DNA of 64,000 nucleotides. Origin: Planctomycetota bacterium. GTDB taxonomy: Bacteria; Planctomycetota; JAJSAM01; JAJVHW01. The translations under genes and the position numbers were made by a program. Shown here one piece after another: positions 502 through 55,600 of the stretch. A model generated the notes under the pieces. That model had not been told where the DNA came from. It did no database searches and saw only the letters and a list, made by a program, of their open reading frames with translations. Each line of letters starts with the position of its first letter. Positions within the stretch are counted from its first letter, which is position 1. The stretch covers positions 17,283 through 81,282 of the forward strand of contig JAJFFG010000051.1 in NCBI GenBank assembly GCA_021776825.1, in the 5' to 3' direction.

Positions 502-1875
502 GTGCCCCACGAGACTGCGGCGGACCCGACGCTCCCCTCCGCACGAGGCGCGGTTCGGAACACGCTCGCCATCCTCGGCGGTCAGTCCGCCGGCATGCTC
601 GTCCGCACGCTCGGCACGCTGCTGCTGATCGCGCTGCTCCCCCGCGATGCGTACGGCGTGCTCACGGCGGCCATCGCGTTCGTGGACCCGATCCGATTCC
701 TCGCCGTCCTGAACCTCGACACGATCGCCATCCGCCAGGCCACCGTCGCGCCGCGCGACGCCGCTCGGATCGTCGGGACGCTCCTGCGGCTGCGTCTCGC
801 GCTCGCTGGTGTCGCGTTCCTCCTCGCAGGCGCGGCGGGGTTCCTCATTCGCGGCGCTGCGCCCGGCGGCGGCGTGGTCATCGTGTGCGCGGCTCTGCTC
901 CTGCTCCCGCAGGGGTTCCAGGGACCGTTCGAGGTCGCGTTCCAGGCTCGACAGCGCATGCGTCGCATCGCGGCGGTCCCGGCGCTCGCGGGCAGCGTGA
1001 ACCTCCTCGCCTTCGTCTGCCTGTGGAGGCTCGACGCACCGATCGCCTTCTACATCGCTGCGCCCGCGCTGGGCGACGCGGTCGGGTGCGCGGTCACGTG
1101 GCGCGTCCTCCGTCGCGACCTGACCGAATGGAACAAGTCGGCCGAGTTGAACAAGTCGGCCGAATCGAACGAGTCGGAGGTGTCGGAGGTGTCGGCCAGG
1201 GAGACGCGACTGGCAGGCGATGCCTCGATCGCGCGCGCCATGGTGCGCGACGGACTCCCGCTCGCATACGTGGGGCTCTTGACCGTGCTGTACACGCGCA
1301 TCGGGTTCTACCTGGTGGAGTGGAGTCATGGACTCGGCGACGTCGCGGACCTCGGCGTCGCCGTGAAGCTCTCGATGCCGTTGCTCCTGATCGGGTCGGC
1401 ACTCTCCGTGTCCGCTCAGCCCTACGCGACGAGGCTGGCCACGGAGGGGCGCTTCGACGACCTGCGACAGTTCTTTCGAACGACACTCGTCCGCGTGATC
1501 GGGACGCTGCTCCCCGTCGCCGTACTCGCCGCGCTCGTCGCGGAGCCCATGGCGCAATGGCTGAAGCCCGAGTACACCGGGGGCGCCCTGGCATTCCGCT
1601 GGCTGGTGTTCGGGGCGCTCTGGATGCTGGTCTGCCAGTTCTCCTCCGCGTGTCTGATCGCTCTCGAGCGCTATCGCGTCATCGCGTTGATGACGACGTT
1701 CAACCTGGTGCTCTTCCTCGCTCTCGCCATTCCCCTGACACCGTTGCTCTCCGCCGAGGGCGTCGCGGTGTCGACGTTCGTGATGGAGCTCGTCAACGCC
1801 GTGGTTCAGGTGACGATCGTCTTCTGCCTGCTCGGCCGCGGCGTGCCACGACTCGGCGCAGGACGCGGCGCATGA
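502..1875 (+). CDS. polysaccharide biosynthesis membrane protein, Wzx-like flippase (MOP superfamily)
   Basis: 457 aa, about 12 predicted hydrophobic segments, typical Wzx/MATE-like composition. Stop overlaps the start of the downstream GT4 gene (ATGA at 1872-1875). Contains an internal NKSAE/SEV low-complexity insertion encoded by a tandem DNA repeat around 1130-1200. Confidence 0.55.
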   Translation: MPHETAADPTLPSARGAVRNTLAILGGQSAGMLVRTLGTLLLIALLPRDAYGVLTAAIAFVDPIRFLAVLNLDTIAIRQATVAPRDAARIVGTLLRLRLALAGVAFLLAGAAGFLIRGAAPGGGVVIVCAALLLLPQGFQGPFEVAFQARQRMRRIAAVPALAGSVNLLAFVCLWRLDAPIAFYIAAPALGDAVGCAVTWRVLRRDLTEWNKSAELNKSAESNESEVSEVSARETRLAGDASIARAMVRDGLPLAYVGLLTVLYTRIGFYLVEWSHGLGDVADLGVAVKLSMPLLLIGSALSVSAQPYATRLATEGRFDDLRQFFRTTLVRVIGTLLPVAVLAALVAEPMAQWLKPEYTGGALAFRWLVFGALWMLVCQFSSACLIALERYRVIALMTTFNLVLFLALAIPLTPLLSAEGVAVSTFVMELVNAVVQVTIVFCLLGRGVPRLGAGRGA

Positions 1876-3068
1876 GTCGAGGATCGCCGCCGCGCCGCTA
1901 CGCCCTGGACGCCTCGCCGTTGCTCGGACGACGCACCGGCATCGGGCGCTACGTCGAGGAGCTGGTCGATCACTTCGTGCCGCTCCTGTGCGAGGACGAG
2001 CGGCTGACGCTGTTCGCCGGGACCTTCCGCCAGAACCCGCTCTTCGGGATCTCGCACGAGCCCCTGACCCGTCGCGCGCGCGCTGACCGACGCGTGCGAG
2101 TGCGCCGCTCGTGGCTGCCCTTCAGCGTGCTGCGGACAGGCTGGAACCTGCTCGACTGGCCGGGCGTCGATCGTCTAGCCGGGCGCCCGCACGTCTTTCA
2201 CGGGACGAACTACAGACTCCCACCACCCGGGCGAGCCGCGGGGATCGCGACGTTCCACGACATGGCGGTGCTGCGGTATCCGGACACCGTCCCGCCGGCC
2301 TTCCGTCAGTGGTTCCGCACGACTGTCGACGCCGCGGCACGTCGCGCGAGCTGGATCGTGGCCGACTCGGACGCCTCGCTGCGCGACACGCTCGAGCTGA
2401 CGGACGCCGACCCCGAGCGCATCACGTCGATCCCGCTCGCGGTCAGTGAGGCTTACCTGGTCCCAGGTGACCGTGATCAGGACCGGCGCCACATCGCGGA
2501 GCGCTACGGGATCACCCAGCCGTACGTGCTGTATGTCGGGACGACGCATCCTCGGAAGAACCTGCCACGGCTGTTGGACGCCTTCGCGAAGGCACGTGCC
2601 GCGGTGGACCTGCCGCATCGTCTCGTCCTCGTCGGCGACAAGGGCTTCGGTTCGGGCGACGTGCAGACCCGCGTCGCGCGCCTCGGCCTCGCCGACACGG
2701 TGTCCCTGCCCGGGTACGTCCCGGAGGACGACCTGCCGCGCTTCTATCGTGCGGCCGACCTGTTCGCGTTCCCGTCGCTGTACGAGGGCTTCGGGTTCCC
2801 CGTCCTCGAGGCGATGGCCACCGGCTGCCCCGTCGTCACGTCGTCGGTCTCGTCCCTGCCGGAGGTCGCCGGTGACGCGGCGCTGATGGTCGATCCGCTC
2901 GACGTCGACGGCATCGCCGAACGGATCGAGCAGGTTCTGACGCGACCCGAACTCGCCGCCGAACTCCGCGAGCTCGGACGTGAACAGGCGGCGCGCTTCT
3001 CGTGGCAACGGACCGCCGAGGCACACGTGGCCCTCTATCGCCGCCTCGCAGAGGAGAGTGAAGCGTGA
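1872..3068 (+). CDS. glycosyltransferase family 4 (GT-B fold, RfaG/WbaZ-like)
   Basis: C-terminal GT4 signature EGFGFPVLEAMATGCPVV...SLPEV. Forms the C-terminal third of the 914-aa ORF 324..3068, whose upstream part I reject. Confidence 0.85.
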   Translation: MSRGSPPRRYALDASPLLGRRTGIGRYVEELVDHFVPLLCEDERLTLFAGTFRQNPLFGISHEPLTRRARADRRVRVRRSWLPFSVLRTGWNLLDWPGVDRLAGRPHVFHGTNYRLPPPGRAAGIATFHDMAVLRYPDTVPPAFRQWFRTTVDAAARRASWIVADSDASLRDTLELTDADPERITSIPLAVSEAYLVPGDRDQDRRHIAERYGITQPYVLYVGTTHPRKNLPRLLDAFAKARAAVDLPHRLVLVGDKGFGSGDVQTRVARLGLADTVSLPGYVPEDDLPRFYRAADLFAFPSLYEGFGFPVLEAMATGCPVVTSSVSSLPEVAGDAALMVDPLDVDGIAERIEQVLTRPELAAELRELGREQAARFSWQRTAEAHVALYRRLAEESEA

Positions 3069-4195
3069 CGCGCCTTCACCTGGCGTTCGACGGGCTCACG
3101 ATCACCGCGCGCCCCGCCGGCGTCGGCAGTGCGGCACGAGAGATCCTGACGGGCCTGCTCGCTCTGCCCGACGGGCCGCGCATCACCGCAACGCTGCCGC
3201 GTGGGACCAGCCTATCGGCCGCCGCGCTGGGGTCCGACCGCCTCTCGGTCATCGAGGCTCCGGTCGACGGCCCCGACACGCCGCGCGCCCTGCTGCAGCA
3301 GCATGTGCGCCTGGCTCGACGACTCGCGGCGACGCGCCCCGACGCGTATCTCGGGCCGGCGTTCGTCCTACCGCTGCATCCGGTCCGGGCCCCGATGGCG
3401 GTCATCGTCTACGACGCCGCGTGGCGACGCTTCCCCGCGACGAAGACGCGCCGCTTCCGCGCGTACATGGATCGAGTGGTCCCGTCGTCCATGCGTCGCG
3501 CTGCCGCGGTCATCACGTGCTCGCGCTTCACCGCGGGCGAGTGTCGCGAGCTCGCACCCGACCTTCCGAACGAGCGACTTCACGTCGTGCCGCTCGGCGT
3601 GCCACCGCGTCCCGCCACCGCCGATCCCGGTAGCGTCCTCGAGGAGCTGGGCATACGTCGGCCATACGTCCTGGCCGTCTCGAACTTCGATGCGCGCAAG
3701 AACCTCCCGCGTCTCATCGATGCGTGGCGGACGCTGCGCGACATGTTCGCGTTCGAGACGACGCTCGTCCTCGTCGGCCACCCGGAGCGGGCGGCGCTGC
3801 TCCGCGCCGAGCGCGAGGTCGGTCCTCACGAACGCGTCGTGACCCCCGGCTACGTGAGTGACAGCCGGCTCGGGGCGCTGTACGCGGGAGCCGGGCTGGT
3901 CGTCGTGCCCAGCCTCTACGAGGGCTTCGGGTTCCCGGTGCTCGAAGCGTACGCCGCGGGAGCGCCCGTGGCGTGCGCGGAAGCGGGCAGCCTGCCGGAG
4001 GTCGCCGGCACGGCGGCGCTACTGTTCGATCCGACGGACGTGGCCGGCATGGCCCAGGCGATCGCCGAGGGACTCCGACCGAGCGCGGCGCGACAGCATC
4101 GCGTGGAGACCGGTCGTGAGATCGCAGCGAATCACTCTTGGGAGTCGACGGCGAGCGGCGTGCTCGACGTGCTGCGCGCGATCACTCGGGCGTGA
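3065..4195 (+). CDS. glycosyltransferase family 4 (second paralog)
   Basis: GTG start overlapping the previous stop (GTGA). Motif EGFGFPVLEAYAAGAPV...SLPEV. Confidence 0.85.
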   Translation: MTRLHLAFDGLTITARPAGVGSAAREILTGLLALPDGPRITATLPRGTSLSAAALGSDRLSVIEAPVDGPDTPRALLQQHVRLARRLAATRPDAYLGPAFVLPLHPVRAPMAVIVYDAAWRRFPATKTRRFRAYMDRVVPSSMRRAAAVITCSRFTAGECRELAPDLPNERLHVVPLGVPPRPATADPGSVLEELGIRRPYVLAVSNFDARKNLPRLIDAWRTLRDMFAFETTLVLVGHPERAALLRAEREVGPHERVVTPGYVSDSRLGALYAGAGLVVVPSLYEGFGFPVLEAYAAGAPVACAEAGSLPEVAGTAALLFDPTDVAGMAQAIAEGLRPSAARQHRVETGREIAANHSWESTASGVLDVLRAITRA

Positions 4196-5819: not shown

Positions 5820-6512
5820 CTACGCCACCGGGGCGTCGAGCTCAGAGGCCTCGGCCTCCGCTGCCACGGCCGCGTCGGTGCTCACGGCCAGCTCGGCCTC
5901 GGGCATCGGAACCGACTCGACACCGTCAGCGTCGGACGAGACGTGTCGATCGAGGCGCTCGGCGGCGTCGAGCGCAGCGTGCGAGAGCGTCAGGAGCTCA
6001 GCGGTCGGCGCGCTACGCTCGACCGCGGCGATCACGGCGCGAGCGGACTCCAGCGTCATCTGGTTCATGCGGGTGACGCGCACCTGATCCTCGCGCAGCG
6101 CCTGGACCGTGACCGTCATCGCCTCGGCGACGTCGAGCATGTAGTCGCCCTCGCGGAACGTCACGCGCTCTGGGAAGCGACGCTGTGCGATCTGCGCCAG
6201 CACGGCCTTGACGCGATAGACGGGTCCGGCGAGGCGGTGCGTGAGGAAGACCCCGTGCACAGCCATGGCCACGAACGTCAGCGTGAGGGGCACGACGACG
6301 AAGCTCCCGAACGCGCGCAACTGCGAGACGGCCTCGGCGTACGCCGGGTCGCCGATCTTGGCGAACACGAGGTCGCTCATGGCGGCCGCGTTCGAGCCGA
6401 GCGCGAAGAGCACGATGTAGAAGTAGAGCCAGCTGACCAGATGCAGGCCGAGCCCGAGCTGGAGCTTCGGATCCACGAGCTTCTGACGACGTCGATGAGC
6501 AGTCTTGGACAT
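5820..6512 (-). CDS. membrane protein with two TM helices and a HAMP-like linker, no output domain
   Basis: Likely start MSKTAHRRRQKL (ATG rc at 6510-6512). The upstream part of ORF 5820..6968 is another frame of the downstream gene's tandem repeats and is rejected. TM helices LHLVSWLYFYIVLFAL and FVVVPLTLTFVAMAV, then a HAMP-like LAGPVYRVKAVLAQIAQRRFPERVTFREGDYMLDVAEAM segment. Confidence 0.45.
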   Translation of the reverse strand: MSKTAHRRRQKLVDPKLQLGLGLHLVSWLYFYIVLFALGSNAAAMSDLVFAKIGDPAYAEAVSQLRAFGSFVVVPLTLTFVAMAVHGVFLTHRLAGPVYRVKAVLAQIAQRRFPERVTFREGDYMLDVAEAMTVTVQALREDQVRVTRMNQMTLESARAVIAAVERSAPTAELLTLSHAALDAAERLDRHVSSDADGVESVPMPEAELAVSTDAAVAAEAEASELDAPVA

Positions 6513-6660
6513 GAGGGGACTCCGCGGTGCCGTGTCTCGCATCGGCACGATCCTCACCATCGCTTGAGCCCATCGACCCTGGCGGTGGGTGGCGGCCTCG
6601 CCGCCGCACGCGATCCGCGGCAGGCGATCCGCGGCAGGCGATCCGCAGCGACGTGTGCCG

Positions 6661-8004
6661 TCAGCGATCGTCGGCCGGGGGGACCGGCGCATCGTCGTCG
6701 GGAGTCGGCGCAGGCTCGTCGGGAGTCGGCGCAGGCTCGTCGGGAGTCGGCGCAGGCTCGTCGGGGCTCTCGCCAGCAGCATCGTCCCCCCCCTCCGGGG
6801 CGGCATCATCCGGCGCGGCATCATCCGGCGCGGCATCATCCGGCACGGCATCATCCGGCACGGCATCATCCGGCACGGCATCGGCTGGCGCGCCATCGAC
6901 CGGAGCCCGGCGCTTGGCACGGACCTTCTCGAGCCGGTCCTGGATGCGCTCGCCCTCCTCGACCTCACCCAGTTCGAAGAGGAAGCGGCCCAGCGAGCTC
7001 ATGATCGTCTCGTCCTCAGGAGAGAGACGGTGCGCCCGGCGCAGGATCTTGACGGCCTTGTAAGGCTCGCCGCGCTCCTTCTGGATCATGGCCAGGAGGA
7101 ACAGCCCGGCGGGCGCATCGCGACGGACGGCGAGGTAGCCCTCGGCGGCGCGCTCGCACTCGTCGAGGCGCCCCATCCGCAGGAGAACGCGGGCCTTGGC
7201 GACGAGCGTGTCGTCGAACGGGATACGTGTCGCTGACGCCTTCAGGATCGATCGGTCGAACGCATCGAGAGCGTCGTCCAAGCGCCCCATGTCGTTCAGG
7301 ACCTGACCCAGCGTGTGCCAGGCGCGGGCGGCATCGGGGTGCTCCTTGACGACGCCGAGGAGGATCTCCTCGGATCGCTTGCGCTCGTCGCGATGCCGAT
7401 GCGCGTCGGCCAGGTTGATCTTCGCGGCCACCTCGTCGCCGTGACCCGGTACGAGTTCGAGCGCAATCCCGATGTCCTCGATCGCCTCGTCGAACCGCGC
7501 GGCCTCGATCAGCATCCCCGCTCGGTTCACGAGCCCGCGGTAGTACCAGCGCCGCGCCATCTCGACGTCGAGGCCGACGGCCTCGGCGCCTTCGTACGCC
7601 TCCTTGAACATGTCGTGCGCGAGCGCGAAGTCACGATCGACCCACCGCAGCCGGCCGATGGCGAACGCCAGTCGCGCATCGCCCTTGCCGCCGCGCGAGA
7701 CGGCGTGCCGGATCAGATCCTCGGCCACCCGGTAGTGGCGAGACGTCTTGGTCAGGCCACCCGGGCGGGCGACGCCAGACTCGATCGCGAGGATCGCGGC
7801 ATCGGCCAGCTGGCCCATCGCGCTGGCCTTGATGGCAGCGCACGCGAACAGTTCCTCGACGGCCTCATCGACACGACCGGCCGCCAGAAGCTCGTCCGCA
7901 CGTGCTTGATGCCAGGCGAACCACTCGTCGGAGGTCTCCTCTCCCGCGTACGTGGGCGTGGCGAGGGACGCGAGGACGATCAGCAGCAGGGGGGCGATGC
8001 GCAT
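6661..8004 (-). CDS. secreted TPR-repeat protein with C-terminal acidic Pro-rich tandem repeats
   Basis: Signal peptide MRIAPLLLIVLASLATPTYA and multiple TPR-like helical repeats. C-terminus (DDAVP/DDAAP)x6 and (DEPAPTP)x3 is encoded by 15-bp and 21-bp DNA tandem repeats at about 6700-6900. Confidence 0.75.
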   Translation of the reverse strand: MRIAPLLLIVLASLATPTYAGEETSDEWFAWHQARADELLAAGRVDEAVEELFACAAIKASAMGQLADAAILAIESGVARPGGLTKTSRHYRVAEDLIRHAVSRGGKGDARLAFAIGRLRWVDRDFALAHDMFKEAYEGAEAVGLDVEMARRWYYRGLVNRAGMLIEAARFDEAIEDIGIALELVPGHGDEVAAKINLADAHRHRDERKRSEEILLGVVKEHPDAARAWHTLGQVLNDMGRLDDALDAFDRSILKASATRIPFDDTLVAKARVLLRMGRLDECERAAEGYLAVRRDAPAGLFLLAMIQKERGEPYKAVKILRRAHRLSPEDETIMSSLGRFLFELGEVEEGERIQDRLEKVRAKRRAPVDGAPADAVPDDAVPDDAVPDDAAPDDAAPDDAAPEGGDDAAGESPDEPAPTPDEPAPTPDEPAPTPDDDAPVPPADDR

Positions 8005-11764: not shown

Positions 11765-13591
11765 ATGCAGGAACGCTCGGGAGAACGACGGTTCACGCAC
11801 ACGGAAGGACCAGGCGTGGCGACCAGATCCAAGGCAGCGAAGTCGAAGGCAGCGAAGACGGGGCCTTCGAAGGCCGCGCGAGCGGCTCCAGCCCGCAAGA
11901 CGTCGACGAAGCCCACCGCCAAGAAGGCCCCATCCAAGAAGGCCACGTCGAAGAAGGCCCCATCCAAGAAGGCCCCATCCAAGAAGGCCACGTCGAAGAA
12001 GCCCGTGGCGAAGAAGTCCGCCGCCAAGCGGGCGACGCGCAACGCCCCGGCGAAGAAGGCCCCCGCGAAGAAGGCCCCCGCGCGAACGACCTCAGCGCGG
12101 AAGCCGACCGCGAAGAAGGCCCCGGCGAAGAAGATCACGGCGAAGAAGTCCACCGCCAGGAAGACGCCGGCTAAGAAGGCTCCGGCCAAGAAGGCCGCGT
12201 CGAAGCGCCCGGCTGCCAAGAAGCCCACCGCCCGCAAGGCTCCCGCACGGACGTCCACGACGAAGCGCTCGGCCACCAAGAAGCCGACGAAGTCGTCCGC
12301 GCGGAAGCCAGCGAAGAAGACCGCCAAGAAGCCCGCGGAGCGCACCGCGTCGACCAAGCCGGCCACGAAGTCGACGACGCGCCGCACGACATCGAAGAAG
12401 GCGCCCGTCAAGAAGACCACCGCGAAGAAGGCGGCGACCCGGAAGGCGCCCGCTAAGAAGGCGACCATCAAGAAGTCGCCGGCCAAGAAGGCGCCCACGA
12501 AGAAGGGCTCTGCGAAGAAGCCCGCCGCCAAGAAGTCCACAGGTAGGAAGACGGCGACGAAGCCGGCTGCAAAGACCACCGTGGCAACGAAGAAGACAGC
12601 GGCCAAGAAGGCCGCACCCAAGACGAAGAGGAGCACCCAGTTGGCCGATAGCCAGACCGGGTCCTCGGCGGAAACCGCCGGGGACCTCAGTACGAAGAAG
12701 TCCAAGTCCGCCTCGTCCGTCGCGACCGCGACGAAGACGGCGGGCGCGCGCCCGAAGCGCAAGCGTGAGCGCAAGCCGAAGCCGCCCGCGAAGACCATGA
12801 ACGCGCCCGAGCCGGTGCGCGACATCCTCCTGTCGATGGACATGCCCGACGTGCGCCGGGCGCGGACGGCGAACCAGCGTCGCCAGGCCTCCCGCGGCCA
12901 CCTCAAGCCGGCCCACACGGATGACCTCGCACAGGACGACATCACGGCGCCGCGTGAGCCGCTCGACGCGACGCTCATCATGAACACGCTGGCCGTCGAC
13001 GTGCAGCCGCGCATCGAGGATCACTACGACTACACGGTGCTCGAGGAGTTCAGCGAGTCCGACGAGTGCCCGCGCTCGACCCGCATGGTCAACACTGGCT
13101 GCGGTGGTGGCGAGGCAGCCGTCTTCTTCGCGAAGCGTGGGTTCCACTGCGTCGGGATCGATCCCGATCGCGGCGACGTCGGCCTCGCCCGCGAGCGTGC
13201 GTGGCTGGCCGGAGTGGACATCGACTTCATGGTCGGTGACCTCTTCGAGACCCCCAACCTCCTCCCCGGTGGTTCGTTCGGGCTCGCTGTGGATCGCGGC
13301 GCGTTCCACCGCATCGAGGAGCCGCGCGAACGTCAGCGCTACCTGGCGAACATTCGTCGGCTTCTCTCTGAGGGCGGCGTGCTGCTCCTCAGCGCCGGGT
13401 ACTTCCCGGTACGCTCCGAGAAGGGTCAGAGTCGCTCACGCCGCACCGGCGAGACGATCCTGCTCGCCGAGGAGGGTGGAGTCGTCGTCGGCGAGATGCG
13501 CACGGCGGGCTTCGCGTTGCTCCACCGCGTGCTGAGGCAGACGGCGGACTCGGGCGAGTTCGGCGAGCTGGTCCTCTACCTGCGGAAGTAG
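11765..13591 (+). CDS. fusion protein: histone H1-like Lys/Ala/Pro-rich repeat domain (about 300 aa) plus C-terminal class I SAM-dependent methyltransferase
   Basis: N-terminal (A/P/T)KK(A/P) repeats (AKKAPAKK, SKKAPSKK and similar). C-terminal Rossmann MTase motif I VNTGCGGGEAAVFFAKRGFHCVGIDPD and post-I acidic motif DFMVGDLF. Confidence 0.7.
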   Translation: MQERSGERRFTHTEGPGVATRSKAAKSKAAKTGPSKAARAAPARKTSTKPTAKKAPSKKATSKKAPSKKAPSKKATSKKPVAKKSAAKRATRNAPAKKAPAKKAPARTTSARKPTAKKAPAKKITAKKSTARKTPAKKAPAKKAASKRPAAKKPTARKAPARTSTTKRSATKKPTKSSARKPAKKTAKKPAERTASTKPATKSTTRRTTSKKAPVKKTTAKKAATRKAPAKKATIKKSPAKKAPTKKGSAKKPAAKKSTGRKTATKPAAKTTVATKKTAAKKAAPKTKRSTQLADSQTGSSAETAGDLSTKKSKSASSVATATKTAGARPKRKRERKPKPPAKTMNAPEPVRDILLSMDMPDVRRARTANQRRQASRGHLKPAHTDDLAQDDITAPREPLDATLIMNTLAVDVQPRIEDHYDYTVLEEFSESDECPRSTRMVNTGCGGGEAAVFFAKRGFHCVGIDPDRGDVGLARERAWLAGVDIDFMVGDLFETPNLLPGGSFGLAVDRGAFHRIEEPRERQRYLANIRRLLSEGGVLLLSAGYFPVRSEKGQSRSRRTGETILLAEEGGVVVGEMRTAGFALLHRVLRQTADSGEFGELVLYLRK

Positions 13592-18160: not shown

Positions 18161-18164
18161 GTTC

Positions 18165-18339
18165 GATCCGTCGTCGGCGCGGGTGGGTCACCCCGCACAC
18201 AGTCGCGTGGCCCGTCGGTCGCAGCCTTGCGTGGCCTCAATCCACGCGTCACCGACGGCGCCTGCGCGAAGCGCAACCTCCGCGCCCCGGGTTCGGATTC
18301 GGGTGGGTGTCGTCTCCTCCAATCCAACGCGATCGCTAC
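18165..18339. repeat. truncated copy of composite repeat (unit tail plus GC stem-loop connector)
   Basis: Contains cggtcgcagccttgcgtggcctca and gcgcaacctccgcgccccgggt, shared with the loci at 21313, 43323 and 55036. Confidence 0.6.
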
Positions 18340-18630
18340 GTCAACGGCGGCGTAGGGGCGGACCCCCTGGTCCGCCCCGCCCGCTGGGGTTGCTCGCGCC
18401 ATGCGGGTCCGATGGCGCACTGCGAACGACCGGCGCGACGCGGACGGCCATCGGACGACGGCGCCGAACCCGATGGACTTCCCTGTGCGTCGGCGTCATC
18501 GGGTCGCGACGGGGATCGCCCGTGACGGACCGATCCACCCCCCCAGCGGTCGCTCGCTGACCGCCATCCACCCGCCTCATCCGGGCGACGCGTGTCGGCG
18601 GGGCGGACCGGGGGGTCCGCCCCTACGGGC
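18340..18630. repeat. MITE-like element copy A (about 290 bp) with about 22-bp terminal inverted repeats containing nested palindromes
   Basis: 5' end GTCAACGGCGGCGTAGGGGCGGACCccctGGTCCGCCCC. 3' end GGGGCGGACCggggGGTCCGCCCCTACGGGCGG. The ends are inverted with respect to each other, and each holds its own palindrome. Confidence 0.7.
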
Positions 18631-18687
18631 GGTCCCGGAAGTTCCCGACGCCGTCCGGGCGGCATACCCGATCGAACGGTGTCGCAA

Positions 18688-18880
18688 CTCAACGGTCCCG
18701 TACGGGCGGATCTCCTGATCCGCCCGCGCCCGCTGGGGTCGCTCGCTCTGGGCGGGTCCGACGGCGCTCGGCGGACGACTCGCGTGATGCGGACAGCCGT
18801 CGGTCGATCTGATGGCGGCTCGACGTCGGGGCTCGATCCCTCGATGACGCCGTCGGCGCCCCCGCCTACCCCTCGTCGGG
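18688..18880. repeat. MITE-like element copy B (partial, 5' TIR of the GATCTCCTGATC variant)
   Basis: Starts CTCAACGGTCCCGTACGGGCGGATCTCCTGATCCGCCCGCGCCCGCTGGGG. Core is homologous to copy A (gcccgctgggg...gggtccgacggcgc...gatgcggacagccgtcgg). Confidence 0.6.
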
Positions 18881-21311: not shown

Positions 21312-21312
21312 G

Positions 21313-21737
21313 GCGGGGCCGGATGAGGTCACGTCGATTGCGAGCAGTCGGTTGGTGACGCGCTTCGGGACATGCGGCAATCGCCGTGCCCACGGTGTCT
21401 CTGGTCGGCTCCGCGGCCGCGTCACCTCGCTAGCGAGCGCGTTGCCCCTCGGTCGCACCCTTGCGTGGCCTCCACTACCCGCGTCACGGCGCGGGGTCAC
21501 GCCGATTGCGGGCGGTTCGTTGGTGACGGGCATCGGGGCCTGCGGCAATCGCCGCGCCTCCGTTGTTGTTGGTCGGCTCCGCGGCTGCGTCTGCTCTCAC
21601 GCAAGAGCAGACCCCTCGGTCGCAGCCTTGCGTGGCCTCATTCCCCGCGTCACGGCGCTTGCGCTGACGCGCAACCGCAGCGCGCAGGGCTAGGATCCGG
21701 GTCGGCCTCGCCCCCGCCAACCTCACGCGATCGCTGT
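21313..21737. repeat. tandem array of about 169-bp hairpin units plus GC stem-loop connector (composite repeat, plus orientation)
   Basis: GTCACGnCGATTGCG at 21328 and 21497; GCGGCAATCGCCG(T/C)GCC at 21374 and 21543, so period 169 bp. Connector CGCGTCACGGCGCTTGCGCTGACGCGCAACCGC at about 21645-21680. Confidence 0.7.
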
Positions 21738-22073
21738 GTCAACGGCGCCGTAGGGGCGGACCCCCTGGTCCGCCCCGCCGACGCGCGCCGCACGCACGAC
21801 TCGGGTGGATGGCGCACCGCGGACGAGGACCGTCGTGTGTTCGGCGACCGGCCGACGGCGCGGTCGCGGCGAGGCGGATGGGAAGCCATCCGGATTGACC
21901 GACGACCGTGCGCATCAAGTCATCGTTCGCTGAGCGCCCGCGTGCCCGAGTCCTCCGCGCGCGCCCCAGTCGGCGGGGTGGATCAGGAGATCCACCCGTA
22001 CGGCAGTTCGGGCACCGATCCGCGAGGTCCTCGTAGGGGCGGGCCCCCGGGCCCGCCCCTACGGCGCCGTTGA
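21738..22073. repeat. MITE-like element copy C (336 bp) with perfect 22-bp TIRs
   Basis: 5' GTCAACGGCGCCGTAGGGGCGG and 3' CCGCCCCTACGGCGCCGTTGAC are exact reverse complements. Nested palindromes GGGGCGGACCccctGGTCCGCCCC and GGGGCGGGCCcccGGGCCCGCCCC. Confidence 0.75.
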
Positions 22074-22079
22074 CCTAGC

Positions 22080-22490
22080 GTGTCCGTGGGATCGGAGGAG
22101 ACGACACCCATCCGGATCCCCACCCGGGGCGCGGAGGTTGCGCGTCAGCGCAAGATCCGTGACGCGGGTATGGAGGCCACGCAAGGCTGCGACCGGGGGG
22201 AACCGCTCTCGCGTGCGAGGTGACGCAGCCGCGGAGCCGACCAGAGACAAACGAGGGCGCGGCGATTGCCGCATGTCCCCGATCAGCGCCCGCCGATCCA
22301 CGGGCCCGCAATCGCCGTGACCGCCACGCAAAGGCAATGGAGGCCACGCAAGGGTGCGACCGAGCAGGCAACGCCCTCGGCAGCGGGGTGACGCACCCGC
22401 GGAGCCGACCAGACAACAAACTAGGGCGCGGCGATTGCCACATGCCCCCGACGAACGCCCACCCACCGGGCGCCCAGCAATCGCCGTGAC
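22080..22490. repeat. inverted (reverse-complement) copy of the connector plus tandem hairpin-unit array
   Basis: ggcgcggcgattgccgcatgtccccgat is the reverse complement of the unit atcggggacatgcggcaatcgccgcgcc. gcgcgtcagcgcaag...cgtgacgcggg is the reverse complement of the connector. Confidence 0.7.
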
Positions 22491-23912
22491 CTAGTTCCTC
22501 TGCAACTCCGCCGGGGTCATCGACACGCCTTCGGGCGGCGTGTCCTTGTTCTTGTCCCACCACTTCTTCGCGGTGCGCGCTCGGCGGCGGCGCTCGGCGA
22601 GGGACTGGTCCTGCGTGACCTCGAAGTCCTGCTGCGTGATGTTGCGCAGGGCGAAATTCGCCTGCTGCGCGACGTACGCCTCCTTGTCCTCGAGCGCCTC
22701 GATCAGGTACGGCGTGGCGAACCACGACTTCAACATCGAGAGCGAGCGGGCACAGGCGCGCCGCACCAGGAAGTGCTTGTCGTTCACAAGAGCCCAGGCG
22801 AGCGCCGGCGTGGCGGCGGGATCGCCAATGCGGCCGAGTTCGTTGGCGGCCGGGAAGCGCACGCCGTCCTCACCGGACTCGAGCAGGTCCTTCGAGAGAC
22901 GCACGACCTCCTCGTTGACCTCGGGAACCACTGGCTGGTCGTCCCGCGGCTGGTCGTCCACTCTTGTTCGCTCGGGAGTCGTGTCGGTCTTCTTGACGAC
23001 GACCTCGGGTCGCGTGACGGTCGCGTTCGCACGCGAGACGACATCGTCGATCCGCTGCTGCAGTCCCTTGAGCTCGCCCTCCATCCGTGCGACGCGCTGG
23101 TCGAGTCGCACGTCGTCCCGAGCCAGGTCGGCGCGCACGCCGGCCAGATCGGTCCGGAGTTTCCCGATCTCGTCGGCGACGTCGCCACCCACGGCCTCGG
23201 CGAACTTCTTGAGTTCACCGGTGATCGCGGCGCGATCGTCGTCGCGCTGCTTCGCGATCTTCGCGATGCGCCCGTCCATCTCGGCGCGGAGTGCGGCGAC
23301 CTCGTCGCTCGGAGTCGGACCGCCCGCCATGCGTTTCTGCACCATCGGACCGATCACGTAGCCGATGCCGCCAGCCAGCGCTGCAACGATGAGGAAGACG
23401 GCCAGCACGCGCAGACCACCGCCGCCCGACTTCGACGACGAGACGGCGCGACAACTCTCACAGACGACGCGGTCGCCCTGGACGAGTGCCTTGCCCGTCA
23501 CGACATGACTGTGCGGCACGACCGCTGAGCAGACGTTGCACCGCGTCGGCTTGACGGGGTCCTCCGCCTCGATGTCGGCAGCCATCTCGGCCTCGACCGC
23601 CTCACGACGCGCGGCCCGCTTGCCGGGATCAGCCTTCGTGCACACGGCGCAGAGGAGCGAGCCGTACTCCTTTCGAGCACGACCCGAGCGCTGGTCCGAC
23701 GCAGGGACCGACACGCGGCAGTTCGCGCAGAAGAGAAGCTCGAGCTCGGTGCCGTCGTCGGTGGCCGGCGCGGTCTCCGCTGGCTTCGCGTCGGCCGCTC
23801 CGTCGCGATGCTCCGAGCAGAGGTTCTTGCCGCCTTCGCCCATGGCGAGGCCAGACTCGACCTCCACGTTGGGGATCGACACGCCACACACACTGCAGAA
23901 ATGGAGTTCCAT
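22491..23912 (-). CDS. membrane protein: three N-terminal CxxC zinc ribbons, one TM helix, coiled-coil region, C-terminal HEAT/PBS-lyase-like repeats
   Basis: Probable start MELHFCSVCGVSIP (ATG rc at 23910-23912), with GGAGAG 7 nt upstream. CxxC pairs: CSVC...CSEH, CANC...CAVC, CNVC...CESC. TM helix LRVLAVFLIVAALAGGIGYVIG. C-terminal segment DPAATPALAWALVNDKHFLVRRACARSL is HEAT-like. Confidence 0.6.
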   Translation of the reverse strand: MELHFCSVCGVSIPNVEVESGLAMGEGGKNLCSEHRDGAADAKPAETAPATDDGTELELLFCANCRVSVPASDQRSGRARKEYGSLLCAVCTKADPGKRAARREAVEAEMAADIEAEDPVKPTRCNVCSAVVPHSHVVTGKALVQGDRVVCESCRAVSSSKSGGGGLRVLAVFLIVAALAGGIGYVIGPMVQKRMAGGPTPSDEVAALRAEMDGRIAKIAKQRDDDRAAITGELKKFAEAVGGDVADEIGKLRTDLAGVRADLARDDVRLDQRVARMEGELKGLQQRIDDVVSRANATVTRPEVVVKKTDTTPERTRVDDQPRDDQPVVPEVNEEVVRLSKDLLESGEDGVRFPAANELGRIGDPAATPALAWALVNDKHFLVRRACARSLSMLKSWFATPYLIEALEDKEAYVAQQANFALRNITQQDFEVTQDQSLAERRRRARTAKKWWDKNKDTPPEGVSMTPAELQRN

Positions 23913-42917: not shown

Positions 42918-43328
42918 ATGCCCTTGGCGAAAGAACCCGCTCACCCGCTCGACAAGCGCGAGCTCCTCCACGCCGATCCTCCGGACGCGAAGCGCATCGA
43001 TGCGGTGGCGTCGAAGCTCCTCGACGAGGGCCGTGAGGGCGAGTCCGTGGAGTACATCGAGGTGACGCGCAACGCGGAGCTCATCGCGCGCCTCACCACC
43101 GCCGCGAAGAAGAAGGGCTCGCCCTTCCTGCTCGAGCAGTCGCAGCGCCTGTCCGGCGAGATCCAAGACGAGACGGCCTGGCGCGACATTGCCGACGCTG
43201 CGCAGCGAGCGGAGCGTCATGTCGACGTCGTGCGCGCGTACTCGGCCGCCGGGCTCGAGGCAGAGGCCGAGGAGTACCGGGTGGTGAACTGCCCGGACTA
43301 CGACCCGTTCAAGCCCCATAACAAGTAG
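42918..43328 (+). CDS. hypothetical protein
   Basis: ATG with GGAG 7 nt upstream. Divergent from the megaregulator gene. 136 aa with no recognisable domain. The stop TAG at 43326-43328 abuts the composite repeat. Confidence 0.5.
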   Translation: MPLAKEPAHPLDKRELLHADPPDAKRIDAVASKLLDEGREGESVEYIEVTRNAELIARLTTAAKKKGSPFLLEQSQRLSGEIQDETAWRDIADAAQRAERHVDVVRAYSAAGLEAEAEEYRVVNCPDYDPFKPHNK

Positions 43329-43934
43329 CGGTCACGGCGATTGCGGCGGGCGTCGAAGGTGGGCGCGCGTCGACACAGTGGCAATCGCCGCGCCCGCTAG
43401 TGCTGTCTGGTGTGTGCTCGGACTCGTCACGCGTCACGCGAGGGAAACCGGCGCCGGTCGAGGACCTCCGCGCACACATTCCCCGCGTCACGGCGCGGGG
43501 TCACGTCGATTGCTGGTCGTGGGTTGGTGACGCACATCGGGACATGCGGCAATCGCCGCGCCTCCCATGTTTCTGGTCGGCTCCGCGGCTGCGTCACCTC
43601 TCACGCGAGAGCAACCCCCTCGGTCGCAGCCTTGCGAGGCCTCATCTCCCGCGGGGGCGGTCACGATCTCCCGCGGGGGCGGTCACGGCGATTGCGGGCG
43701 GTCGGTTGGTGACGCCGATCGGGGCATGAGGCAATCGCCGCGCCCTCGTTGTTGAGTGGCGTGTGCTCGGTCTCATCACGCGTCACCCGAGGGCAATCGG
43801 CGCCGGTCGAGGACCTCCGCGCACACATTCCCGCGTCACGGCGCTTGCGCTGACGCGCAACCGCCGCGCCCCGGGTGAGGATCCGGGTGCCGGTCGCCTC
43901 CTCCCGTCCAACCGGTCCATTACCTCAACGGCGC
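43323..43934. repeat. tandem array of three about 180-bp hairpin units plus GC stem-loop connector (composite repeat)
   Basis: GTCACGnCGATTGC at about 43323, 43500 and 43681, each followed about 45 bp later by GCAATCGCCGCGCC. Connector CCGCGTCACGGCGCTTGCGCTGACGCGCAACCGCCGCGCCCCGGGTG at about 43835-43880. Confidence 0.7.
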
Positions 43935-44205
43935 CGTAGGGGCGGATCTCCTGATCTGCCCCGCCCGCTGGCGTGCGCGCGATCGATGCGGGTCCGATGG
44001 CGCTCGGCGCGCGGCTCCCGTGATGCGGACGGCCATCGGTCGACCGCGCCTCACTTCGGCGATCCGCCCGATCGTGATTCGTGCGCATCGCCGTCACCGG
44101 TCGGACGCGCCAGCCACCACCGTCGCCCGCGCGATCCGTCGTCGGCGCGGGTGGGTCAGGAGACCCACCCCTACAACGCCGTTGACCAGGCGAACCCCGT
44201 CGTAC
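43935..44205. repeat. MITE-like element copy D1 (GATCTCCTGATC variant)
   Basis: 5' CTCAACGGCGCCGTAGGGGCGGATCTCCTGATCTGCCCCGCCCGCTGG. 3' GGGTGGGTCAGGAGACCCACCCCTACAACGCCGTTGAC. Confidence 0.65.
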
Positions 44206-44214
44206 GGGCGGATC

Positions 44215-44345
44215 TCCTGATCCGCCCCGCCCGCCGGGTCACGCGCGGTCAACGCGATCCGATGGCGCTCCGCGGACGATCCCGCTCATGCGGACGGCGA
44301 CCGGTCGAGGGCGTCGCAGGCGATCGGCCGCGCAACCGACGCCTC
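44215..44345. repeat. partial tandem second copy (D2) of MITE-like element
   Basis: CGTACGGGCGGATCTCCTGATCCGCCCCGCCCGCCGGG followed by core-homologous sequence. No 3' TIR is seen before the next gene. Confidence 0.5.
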
Positions 44346-44347
44346 TC

Positions 44348-54010: not shown

Positions 54011-55035
54011 AGCCCAAGGTGTTCCTGTCTCTGGTCGCGGCGCTCGTCGTCGCGGTGGTCACGGTGACGTTCCTCTGGCCCCGGCAGGAGGGCGTCACGC
54101 TCTACTGCGCGGTCGACGACGTGCACGCGATCCCGATCCTCGACGCGTTCGAGGCGCGCACGGGCATCCACATTCATCGCAACTTCGACACCGAGGCGAA
54201 CAAGACGGTCGGCCTGGTCGCGAAGCTGCGCGAAGAGCGCGCGAACCCGCGTGCCGACGTGTTCTGGAACAACGAGATCATGCACACGATCCGCCTGGCT
54301 CGGGAAGGCGTGCTGACTCCGTACGCGTCCGACTCCGCGAAGGACATCCCCGATGCCCTCAAGGACGCCGACGCGCTCTGGACCGGGTTCGCTGCGCGCG
54401 CGCGCATCCTGATCGTCAACACCGAGCTGCTCCCCGACCAGGCTGAGCACCCGACGTCGATGCAGGACCTCCTCGCCGAGCCGTGGAAGGGCCGCACGTC
54501 GTTCGTGCGTCCACTGACGGGCACGACGTTGACCCACGCCGCCGTGCTCTACACCGTGCTCGGTGACGACGGCGCGCGCGACTGGTTCAAGGGCATGCAC
54601 GCGAACGGCACCGTGTTCCCGAGCGGCAACGGTCAGCTCGCCCGCGCGGTCGCCGGCGGTCAGTCGACGTTCGGGTTCACCGACACCGACGACTTCGAGA
54701 AGGTGCGCCGCGATGGCCGGCCAGTCGCGAAGGTCTACCCCGATCAGGGCGAGGGCCAACCTGGCACGCTGCTCATCCCGAACACCATCGGTCTCGTGAA
54801 GGGCGGCCCTCGCCCCGACCTGGGCCAACAGCTCATCGACTTCCTCCTGTCGAGGGAAGTCGAGGCGATGCTCGCCGCCGGCGACAGCGCTCAGATCCCG
54901 GTCCGCAGCGACGTCGCTCGCCCCCCGAGCGTCATCGGACCGCCGACGTTCCGGACGATGGTGGTCGACTGGAATGACGTGGTCGAGAACTTCGATCAGC
55001 GGCTGGGGGAGTTGGAGGCCCTCTGGCGGCCCTAG
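54007..55035 (+). CDS. extracellular solute-binding protein (iron(III)/SBP family 1-like)
   Basis: ATGA overlap with the RR stop. N-terminal TM/signal MKPKVFLSLVAALVVAVVTVTF. Periplasmic-binding-protein-like sequence. Confidence 0.7.
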   Translation: MKPKVFLSLVAALVVAVVTVTFLWPRQEGVTLYCAVDDVHAIPILDAFEARTGIHIHRNFDTEANKTVGLVAKLREERANPRADVFWNNEIMHTIRLAREGVLTPYASDSAKDIPDALKDADALWTGFAARARILIVNTELLPDQAEHPTSMQDLLAEPWKGRTSFVRPLTGTTLTHAAVLYTVLGDDGARDWFKGMHANGTVFPSGNGQLARAVAGGQSTFGFTDTDDFEKVRRDGRPVAKVYPDQGEGQPGTLLIPNTIGLVKGGPRPDLGQQLIDFLLSREVEAMLAAGDSAQIPVRSDVARPPSVIGPPTFRTMVVDWNDVVENFDQRLGELEALWRP

Positions 55036-55279
55036 TCACGCCGATTGCGAGGCGCGTCGCAGGTGGGCGCGCCTCGGCTGAGAGGCAATCAGCGAGCCTT
55101 GCGTTGTTGTCTGGCGTGTGCTCGGTCTCGTCACGCATCTGACGAGGGCCATCGGCGCCGGTCGAGGACCTCCGCGCACACACTCCCCGCGTCACGGCGC
55201 CTGCGCTGACGCGCAACCGCCGCGCCCCGGGCGGGGATACGGGCGGGCTGGGTCTTCTCCGATCCCACGGGTCCGCTCT
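55036..55279. repeat. single hairpin unit plus GC stem-loop connector (composite repeat) directly after stop codon
   Basis: GTCACGCCGATTGCG...GGCAATCAGCG, then CGCGTCACGGCGCCTGCGCTGACGCGCAACCGCCGCGCCCCGGGCGGGG. Confidence 0.65.
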
Positions 55280-55572
55280 GTCAATGGTGCCGTAGGGGCG
55301 GATCTCCTGATCCGCCCCGCCCGCTGGGGTGGCGCGCGCTCGATCGGGGCGGATGGCGCTCTGCGGACGATGTCGGTGATGCGCGCGGCTCCCGGTCGAG
55401 GGCGTCGGCGCCGATCGGCGATGCGACGACTGGCGTCATCGGGTCGCGACGGTGATCGCCCGTGGCCGTCCGATCCACGGCCGTCGTCCGCTGTCCGCCA
55501 CTCACCCGCCGGGTCCGAGCGACGCGCGTCGGCGGGGCGGATCAGGAGATCCGCCCCTACGAAGCCGTTGAG
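55280..55572. repeat. MITE-like element copy E (293 bp) with inverted ends each holding the GGGGCGGATCaggaGATCCGCCCC palindrome
   Basis: 5' GTCAATGGTGCCGTAGGGGCGGATCTCCTGATCCGCCCC. 3' GGGGCGGATCAGGAGATCCGCCCCTACGAAGCCGTTGAG. Confidence 0.7.
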
Positions 55573-55600
55573 CTGTCGTTCCCCTGATGGCATCGACGGA

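Follow-up and report, generated by a model that had tools for sequence, protein, structure and literature searches.

Short repeats of bacterial genomes include MITEs derived from DDE insertion sequences, e.g. Correia elements. GTAG-tagged REPs consist of an unpaired GTAG, a stem of 6-13 bp and a short loop; they form head-to-head (HH) dimers and are preferentially located in convergent or unidirectional gaps (Di Nocera, De Gregorio and Rocco 2013, PMC3733652). Sub-families of GTAG-REPs differ by complementary changes in their stems, and the spacing within dimers is typically 20-100 bp (PMC3733652). Biochemical work on three systems has shown that the substrate of TnpA(REP)/RAYT is the REP folded as single-stranded DNA, with GTAG as part of what is recognised, and that cleavage takes place at a CT or CA close by (PMC8266576). 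Perfectly palindromic REPs, termed "group 3", occur in Stenotrophomonas and Pseudomonas, and a change of the tag to GTAC abolished cleavage in the S. maltophilia system (PMC8266576). An inverted REP doublet that forms a hairpin was recognised as a replicative unit and named REPIN (Bertels and Rainey 2011, PMC3116915); Pseudomonas REPINs are 71-110 bp in length (PMC3116915). BIMEs of enterobacteria, as summarised in PMC2817692, are extragenic arrays that join REPs of alternating orientation to other conserved motifs in regular order.

The window, i.e. the whole 64-kb stretch of DNA that was analysed, has a G+C content of about 70% throughout. At least six copies of a MITE-like family had been predicted in it from the sequence, and the six that were listed are all present. 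The terminal motif TCAACGGCGCCGTAGGGGCGG has 8 matches at three or fewer mismatches compared to 0.00 expected (none in 100 shuffles; 64-kb window), and the REP-type motif GTAGGGGCGG has 16 matches at no more than one mismatch in the same window, where 5.1 are expected. Since the count of TCAACGGCGCCGTAGGGGCGG is far above chance and a repeat search of the window recovers the same places, the six copies are real. The family goes far beyond chance occurrence.

Boundaries of the copies according to a nhmmer profile are 18340-18628, 18689-18820, 21738-22005 (followed by an extra hairpin at 22033-22073), 43925-44186, 44193-44322 and 55281-55571. Compared to these, two of the predicted extents, 43935-44205 and 44215-44345, are off by about 10-20 nt. 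The 22-bp terminal inverted repeats (TIRs) ascribed to the copy at 21738-22073 (copy C) are perfect as stated, being located at 21738-21759 and 22052-22073, and every copy end has a hairpin of its own. The two shorter copies, at 18689-18820 and 44193-44322, turned out to be single units.

With the unit profile, ten copies and no more are detected in the window; one bare hairpin is found besides. The ten units form four head-to-head inverted pairs, which are the full copies of the original prediction, and two single units. They are listed below together with the bare hairpin.

Unit c1L, 18340..18471, plus strand: left arm of doublet 1, composed of TCAACGG, four bases, a GTAG-tagged REP at 18352-18378 (10-bp stem, 4-nt loop) and the tail; nhmmer E=5.9e-27.
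Unit c1R, 18501..18628, minus strand: right arm of doublet 1; REP at 18600-18626; outer TCAACGG heptamer degenerate; nhmmer E=3.8e-19.
Unit c2, 18689..18820, plus strand: single unit of L-type; REP at 18700-18726 with GTAC tag, first stem pair compensated (C-G instead of G-C); nhmmer E=2e-27.
Unit c3R, 21738..21864, plus strand: R-type arm of doublet 3; REP at 21750-21776; nhmmer E=7.6e-26.
Unit c3L, 21883..22005, minus strand: L-like arm of doublet 3; REP at 21975-22001, stem GGGTGGATC/GATCCACCC; nhmmer E=1.6e-25.
Bare extra REP, 22033..22073, minus strand: GTAGGGGCGGGCCC..GGGCCCGCCCCTAC with outer CCGTTGA heptamer, joined to an inverted B unit (see below); fully palindromic, with a GTAG-REP on both strands; predicted ssDNA hairpin of -20.2 kcal/mol.
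Unit c4L, 43925..44053, plus strand: left arm of doublet 4; REP at 43936-43962; nhmmer E=2.9e-30.
Unit c4R, 44055..44186, minus strand: right arm of doublet 4; REP at 44148-44174, stem GGGGTGGGTC/GACCCACCC; nhmmer E=9.3e-22.
Unit c5, 44193..44322, plus strand: single unit of L-type; REP at 44202-44228 with GTAC tag; nhmmer E=1.6e-26.
Unit c6L, 55281..55413, plus strand: left arm of doublet 6; REP at 55292-55318; nhmmer E=4e-29.
Unit c6R, 55441..55571, minus strand: right arm of doublet 6; REP at 55534-55560; nhmmer E=2.4e-27.

Pairwise identity among the units in the window ranges from 57 to 83%. The copies are thus old, and recent activity is not indicated. No pair in the window exceeds 83% identity, so that neither a "master sequence" nor current activity is indicated, and a population of near-identical copies as expected of a REPIN-RAYT system does not occur within the window.

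All copies lie inside the four largest non-coding gaps of the window, as delimited by a codon-position G+C scan (18161-18865, 21312-22490, 43329-44347 and 55036-55600). The predicted strictly intergenic location is thereby confirmed.

The basic unit of about 135 nt consists of TCAACGG, four variable bases, GTA(G/C), a perfect 10-bp GC stem with 4-nt loop and a tail of about 100 nt. When hairpins preceded by GTA(G/C) were searched for, 11 of this family were recovered (8 with GTAG, 3 with GTAC); in all 11 the stem starts directly after the tag, and GTA is invariant across the aligned units. Two palindrome variants had been proposed; five stem variants were found instead (ACC/GGT, ATC/GAT, GTC/GAC with T/A, TGGATC/GATCCA and GGCC/GGCC) and they differ by complementary changes. 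Sequences of the variants are GGGGCGGACC/GGTCCGCCCC, GGGGCGGATC/GATCCGCCCC, GGGTGGATC/GATCCACCC, GGGGTGGGTC/GACCCACCC and GGGGCGGGCC/GGCCCGCCCC. Predicted folding of the hairpins as single-stranded DNA amounts to -10 to -20 kcal/mol.

The REP stem is maintained by compensatory changes. In the ten aligned units, 90 of 90 stem cells are paired and double changes are present in three of nine pairs. The covariation score of the stem was reached by none of 500 shuffles, and pairing is lost on sliding the partner columns. Mean pairwise identity is 88% in the REP hairpin, 72% in its immediate flanks and 56-63% in the tail.

When the left half of a full copy is aligned with the reverse-complemented right half, homology extends over about 130 nt. 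A full copy (about 290 nt) is therefore a head-to-head doublet of the unit of about 135 nt, and no distinct module corresponds to the separate conserved "core" that had been proposed between the ends. Four such inverted doublets take in 8 of the 11 REPs, with REP-to-REP spacing of about 240 nt. Copy C (doublet 3) aligns much better when reverse-complemented, which means that it is inverted relative to the others. L-type arms, recognised by the GCCCGCTGGGG inner flank, are 69-79% identical across loci, whereas L and R arms within one doublet are 61-65% identical. Since L arms are alike across loci and less like their own R partners, the difference between left and right predates the spread of the repeats, and the doublet was copied as a unit.

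According to structure prediction, the full copy folds into a single long rod, its left 100 nt or so pairing with the right 100 nt or so. This strong folding, along with many internal inverted repeats, would suit a family of structured non-coding RNA genes, and a structured-RNA core had indeed been suggested. The folding and covariation analyses argue otherwise. The fold of copy 6 is equally good on the two strands (z-scores of -8.6 and -8.8; copy 1 has -5.2), and covariation is confined to the REP stem, as no predicted pair outside it covaries in the alignment of ten units. Arms are no more complementary to their own partner than to partners in other doublets, so that the long doublet stem is without detectable selection. 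In addition, no promoter-like sites are present in clusters 1 and 2, the region scanned for them, and Rfam yielded no family at gathering threshold in the whole window, nor any relevant one when three of the four clusters were searched at E<=1. Non-coding RNA genes are therefore extremely improbable as an explanation of these repeats.

The doublets are embedded in larger mosaics. Convergent genes border all four gaps, and units together with two other modules, here called A and B, occupy the gaps over their full length. Clusters 1, 3 and 4 have the module order A(n)-B-unit(+)-unit(-)-unit(+), and cluster 2 (1.18 kb) consists of two such A-B-unit arrays facing each other. The B unit is about 100 nt long and is present in five copies with 82% mean column identity. 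In every case it is joined directly to the TCAACGG-REP.

B unit, 18240..18339, plus strand: directly joined to TCAACGG of c1L; from the alignment of five copies and the repeat search.
B unit, 21643..21737, plus strand: joined to c3R; from the alignment.
B unit, 22074..22169, minus strand: inverted, joined to the bare extra REP; from the alignment, inverted repeat.
B unit, 43829..43923, plus strand: joined to c4L; from the alignment.
B unit, 55185..55279, plus strand: joined to c6L; from the alignment.

The A unit has a length of about 168 nt and is found ahead of B, one to three times in tandem; eight of its copies are full and one is a half copy.

A unit, 3' half, 18166..18255, plus strand: located just past the stop of the ARPP-1 gene; nhmmer E=6.8e-17.
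Two tandem A units, 21324..21660 (21324-21493 and 21493-21660), plus strand: begin 13 nt past the TAG stop of an ABC-transporter gene; two hairpin domains each; nhmmer E=1.5e-42 and 1.2e-41.
Inverted A units, two in tandem, 22152..22495 (22152-22324 and 22326-22495), minus strand: abut the TAG stop of a minus-strand HEAT-repeat gene; nhmmer E=4.8e-40 and 4.9e-32.
Three tandem A units, 43327..43846 (43327-43496, 43497-43654 and 43679-43846), plus strand: begin at the TAG codon that ends gene 42918-43328; nhmmer E=6e-36, 6.6e-42 and 9.6e-41.
One A unit of beta subtype, 55033..55201, plus strand: overlaps the TAG stop of a solute-binding-protein gene; nhmmer E=6.3e-35.

Each A unit combines a 14-bp 5' stem (GTCACGGCGATTGC/GCAATCGCCGYG) with a long 3' stem, and five double changes between the alpha and beta subtypes preserve the latter. 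Strand asymmetry of the A-unit fold (-29.9 kcal/mol in sense compared to -27.1 kcal/mol in antisense) is not decisive. Constant sense orientation of A units relative to the adjacent gene was rejected as a signal, being a geometric necessity in a convergent gap.

The mosaic organization bears directly on the question of where a copy ends. Copies had been thought to terminate at their TIRs, but similarity runs on leftwards into the B unit of about 100 nt and then into the A units of about 168 nt. As this homology continues into B, the "TIR" end is no junction with unique DNA; what had been taken for a terminal repeat is a REP hairpin to which a conserved outer heptamer belongs, as opposed to a repeat for transposase binding that has a clean boundary. 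This has consequences for interpretation of the repeats as classical MITEs, that is, deletion derivatives of an insertion sequence with DDE transposase, moved in trans via the 22-bp TIRs. Such an origin would account for inverted ends that are conserved and, in copy C, perfect over 22 bp, as well as for the size of about 290 nt and for a non-coding, multi-copy, intergenic nature. On the other hand, no consistent direct repeat that could represent a target-site duplication was detected at any of the four full copies, even with boundaries shifted by up to 3 nt. Homology continues into a B unit left of every copy, the arms are homologous over about 130 nt, single arms occur alone, and the ends are formed by GTAG plus hairpin, a signature of Y1 substrates. 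What stands of the MITE-like description is a dispersed non-coding family with inverted, hairpin-folding ends. The classical MITE does not agree with the missing target-site duplications, the composition of each copy as a doublet of a smaller unit or the constant placement in an A-B mosaic, and we consider it highly unlikely.

Position of the mosaics relative to genes raises another explanation. The REP-like hairpin modules might have no dedicated transposase, and the mosaics might be host 3'-end elements (transcript stabilisers, terminator substitutes or protein-binding sites) that were spread by recombination or segmental copying and kept by selection on their hairpins. In accordance with this, every cluster fills a convergent gap and begins at, or within about 20 nt of, a stop codon, while classical terminator-like sites are absent from the convergent region scanned (clusters 1 and 2). 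Compensatory change keeps both the REP stem and, through the five alpha/beta double changes, the 3' stem of the A unit. Mosaics correspond collinearly from locus to locus over their whole extent, and the copies are old. For CGTC-type REPs, a dedicated transposase was reported absent (PMC3733652). However, RNA stability alone hardly explains the conserved unpaired GTAG and the outer heptamer, the two strands fold equally, and the L and R arm types common to the loci indicate that a defined unit was copied. We therefore regard the host-element explanation as a serious one that is nevertheless unlikely to be correct. TAG ends six of the eight genes flanking the clusters, but because TAG already accounts for 45% of stops in the window, this enrichment is marginal (p about 0.04).

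The predicted absence of a transposase from the window was borne out: there is none among the 38 window ORFs scanned with Pfam, and tblastn with an approximate E. coli RayT sequence as query found nothing in the window. Among the proteins encoded here is a 1,794-aa kinase-TPR-GAF-sigma54 activator fusion. Judged by this fusion and the G+C content of about 70%, the host would probably be a myxobacterium; the assembly record lists it under Planctomycetota. The window proteins are singletons at 90% clustering and derive from a single NCBI contig (132,047 bp) and from Logan assemblies of run SRR15505515. In a metagenome, one locus (L065) gave a weak tblastn match to the approximate RayT; it contains an ORF with HUH- and Y-like motifs that has no Pfam match at E<=1e-4.

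In a further alternative, the repeats are non-autonomous derivatives of the IS200/IS605 type (palindrome-associated transposable elements) moved by TnpA(IS200) instead of a domesticated RAYT, with the tail of about 100 nt as a remnant of an IS end or of an associated RNA. A subterminal hairpin with a 5' tetranucleotide, units without target-site duplications and conserved sequence reaching about 100 nt inward from one end only would all be in agreement with it. Nevertheless, the ends of IS200/IS605 elements are distinct from each other and are not inverted repeats, whereas left and right ends of our doublets are the same hairpin in inverted orientation. Neither tnpA nor tnpB was detected in the window, nor does Rfam provide a match at E<=1 (three of four clusters) or at gathering threshold (window). 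Descent from IS200/IS605 elements is accordingly quite improbable.

Occurrence of the repeats outside the window was examined through proteins. The copies were translated in the open frame most common among them, a profile of these translations was searched against a protein collection, and a second search was done with four other frames concatenated. The first search retrieved the spurious ORF of the window itself and nine others, all NCBI singletons of 201-254 aa; these nine ORFs are on contigs of 53-170 kb that have eight distinct sizes (two ORFs share one), all different from the size of the window's contig. One further ORF, on a 61-kb contig, was found by the second search. The spurious ORFs P0009-P0018 run through modules A, A, B, left unit, right unit and left unit, in that order. 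At least 25 further REP-encoded peptides are present in ORFs of ten other contigs, for example VGADLLIRP, VGADPLVRP and VGAGPLARP, with GWVRRPTPT and GRIRRSAPT as reverse-strand forms. Copy 4 together with the start of copy 5 is 63% identical to ORF P0010 over 111 aa without a frameshift, and copies 1+2 are 52% identical to ORF P0009 over 227 aa.

The doublet, and even the larger B-L-R-L block, therefore recurs collinearly at other loci. Since collinear copies are translated in ORFs on ten other contigs, the family is dispersed to other contigs and does not represent a purely local duplication, which would have spoken against the original prediction. The ten contigs probably belong to the same genome as the window, judging by the similar sizes of these NCBI singletons.

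The REP pattern has four exact matches in the window, and among 185,579 species-representative genomes, which include neither the source genome nor close relatives, it matched only two unrelated MAGs; in none of these 185,579 genomes do the ATC/ACC stem variants occur in a comparable high-GC context. A scan of viral contigs found nothing, and neither the mosaic nor the REP had a meaningful BLAST match among plasmids. With a broader pattern, a metagenome scan recovered the 26-mer hairpin in unrelated organisms, with the TCAACGG flank or the tail in none of the matches listed. A literature search for the sequence string of the repeat returned nothing specific. Logan contigs of SRR15505515 are 3.4-10.9 kb long; some of them end inside repeats (L123) and none extends past the window. 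As such contigs are short everywhere, their ending in repeats is weak evidence.

Taken together, we think it probable that these repeats are GTAG-tagged REPs which head units of about 135 nt, are arranged in inverted doublets within BIME-like mosaics and would have been moved by a RAYT-type Y1 enzyme. The family is best read as a lineage-specific REP repeat. Movement by a RAYT-type Y1 HUH enzyme is the most likely one because the ends have the form of GTAG-REPs and because of the published biochemistry of TnpA(REP)/RAYT. An enzyme of the RAYT/TnpA type, as was initially proposed, fits the GTAG-plus-palindrome ends as far as these can be judged from sequence. With respect to the enzyme, the strand acted on, the cleavage site and any RNA role, we infer the following course. 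The REP hairpin would form in single-stranded DNA at the replication fork. A Y1 HUH transposase of the RAYT/TnpA(REP) type, its gene being located in another part of the genome, would then recognise the hairpin along with the unpaired 5' GTAG and would cut at a nearby CT or CA dinucleotide. In this way, REP-bounded segments could be moved or copied without target-site duplications. Copies would persist where they are harmless, downstream of convergent genes, and are probably transcribed there as 3'-end hairpins.

Four features weaken the interpretation as a simple REPIN: REP spacing of about 240 nt, identity of 83% at most, three GTAC tags and collinearity of whole mosaics. Recombination or segmental copying could produce mosaics collinear between loci (A-B-L-R-L) just as well as REP-directed transposition. 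It is also conceivable, although we find it rather unlikely, that the relevant module is larger than the doublet and comprises the entire polar mosaic, A(n)-B-REP unit(s). This would be a composite module, mobile or functional, of a kind that has not been described before, in a high-GC lineage from which few genomes have been sampled. Mosaics might then be long "arms" of a REPtron/TIRtron-like element, with the symmetric cluster 21324-22495 as its solo form. Alternatively, they might represent a 3'-end RNA cassette that is under selection and is transferred as an intact copy from one convergent gene pair to another. If the whole mosaic were such a module, REP/RAYT biology would be extended to elements about three times the known length of REPINs and equipped with obligatory accessory modules.

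If the interpretation as REPs is right, a lineage-specific REP family is added by this genome in a bacterial group for which few descriptions of such repeats exist, which does not challenge current understanding. Long doublets and strict modular syntax make it a useful case for what RAYT-type enzymes copy: the REP, the doublet or the mosaic. In addition, the repeats yield spurious ORFs of 200-280 aa in public protein sets.

Among the systems introduced above, DDE-derived MITEs such as Correia elements resemble the repeats in being small, non-coding, multi-copy and intergenic with inverted ends, but our repeats are devoid of target-site duplications and of a clean junction with unique DNA, and their ends are GTAG hairpins. 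Resemblance to BIMEs, as summarised in PMC2817692, concerns alternating REPs and other motifs in regular order and the extragenic location. Compared to BIME motifs, A (about 168 nt) and B (about 100 nt) are accessory modules of far greater size; they are hairpin-rich tandem units, and the sequences are unrelated. With REPINs, our doublets share inverted REPs and a spacer that fold as one long hairpin, as well as the doublet as the copied unit; single REPs look like remnants or additions in both. Doublets of the window are, however, about 290 nt in total and only 57-83% identical, whereas REPINs measure about 70-110 bp.

Features shared with GTAG-tagged REPs include an unpaired and sometimes degenerate 5' GTAG, a GC-rich perfect stem, a short loop and sub-families distinguished by complementary changes, as well as predominance of head-to-head dimers and location between convergent genes, downstream of coding regions. 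Being perfectly palindromic, REPs of the window fall into "group 3" of PMC8266576, although three of them bear GTAC, unlike the cleavable GTAG REPs of S. maltophilia. REPs in our dimers are about 240 nt apart instead of 20-100. In contrast to GTAG-tagged REPs described before, they possess a conserved outer TCAACGG heptamer and a homologous tail of about 100 nt, and they are tied to two other repeat modules. The family is thus best read as belonging to a class of bacterial repeat that is already known and not as a new class of element; its long arms and obligatory A and B modules are its unusual traits.

Each repeat cluster of the window combines the REP unit with two further repeat families, A and B. 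The A family comprises 8.5 copies of a unit of about 168 nt, with a mean column identity of 67%, arranged in tandem arrays that begin at a stop codon or within about 20 nt of one. Every A unit contains a 14-bp stem at its 5' side and a long stem at its 3' side; two subtypes, alpha and beta, can be recognized, between which the 3' stem is preserved through five double changes. The B module, about 100 nt long, is present in five copies (82% identity), all of them joined to a TCAACGG-REP, and its initial 15 nt resemble the start of the A unit. Positions in the window are as follows:

A units, tandem arrays: 18166-18255, 21324-21660, 22152-22495, 43327-43846, 55033-55201
B units: 18240-18339, 21643-21737, 22074-22169 (-), 43829-43923, 55185-55279

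TAG accounts for an unusually high share of stop codons among predicted window genes (18 of 40). It terminates six of the eight genes flanking repeat clusters, a marginal enrichment (p ~0.04), and three A units directly adjoin it.

Profile searches with translated repeat copies retrieved proteins P0008-P0018 from a public collection. These are repeat mosaics annotated as hypothetical proteins (201-277 aa), that is, spurious ORFs produced by high-GC repeats.

Repetitive, composite or paralogous coding sequences were also observed in the window:

11863-12615: 15-nt coding tandem repeat, 27 copies, within gene 11765-13591
6685-6903: coding tandem repeats (21-nt and 15-nt periods) within the overlap of ORFs 5820-6968 (-) and 6661-8004 (-)
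37532-42916 (-): fusion protein of 1,794 aa with Ser/Thr kinase, AAA_16, TPR, GAF, sigma-54 activator and HTH_8 domains
1872-3068 and 3065-4195: paralogous adjacent pair of group-1 glycosyltransferase genes

The product of gene 11765-13591 joins a methyltransferase domain to an N-terminal region that is encoded by the 15-nt repeats, rich in Lys, Ala and Pro, and similar to histone H1/HC2. The 1,794-aa fusion protein provides the principal ground for regarding the host as a probable myxobacterium. The glycosyltransferase genes share 70-77% DNA identity across conserved stretches and lie in a polysaccharide synthesis neighbourhood.

Outside the window, the same 26-nt GTAG hairpin, most commonly GTAGGGGCGGGTCTCCTGACCCGCCC among the matches listed, was found on more than 120 further contigs (metagenome contigs L003-L122 together with MAG loci L001 and L002). 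Since these contigs range from 37 to 71% G+C, originate from gut, sediment and other samples and carry several kinds of hairpin flanks, the hairpin sequence is common to organisms far outside the window's lineage. Only the REP part of the window's unit is matched. Three loci contain ORFs of interest:

L065, 1478-2143 and 6467-9214: GTAG hairpins and ORF with HUH-like and tyrosine motifs
L089, 4287-7697 (-): restriction/methylase-like ORF of 1,136 aa
L001, 5015-5578 (-), Patescibacteria MAG JBGSIU010000042.1, 37% G+C: dihydrofolate-reductase-like ORF with in-frame hairpin

At least four distinct types of GTAG hairpin are present on metagenome contig L065. Its ORF combines HUH-like PNHVHLL with tyrosine motif YIDTNPAKW and has two GTAG hairpins inside it; Pfam search of this ORF gave no match at E<=1e-4. 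An internal stretch of the L089 ORF (VLRDHVHML ... YNYIKENHLKH) is weakly similar to Y1 transposases.

In L001, the in-frame GTAG hairpin contributes peptide FVGADLLVRPNSAAGG to the dihydrofolate-reductase-like ORF. Intragenic REP insertions of this kind have been reported for Opitutus and Rickettsia.
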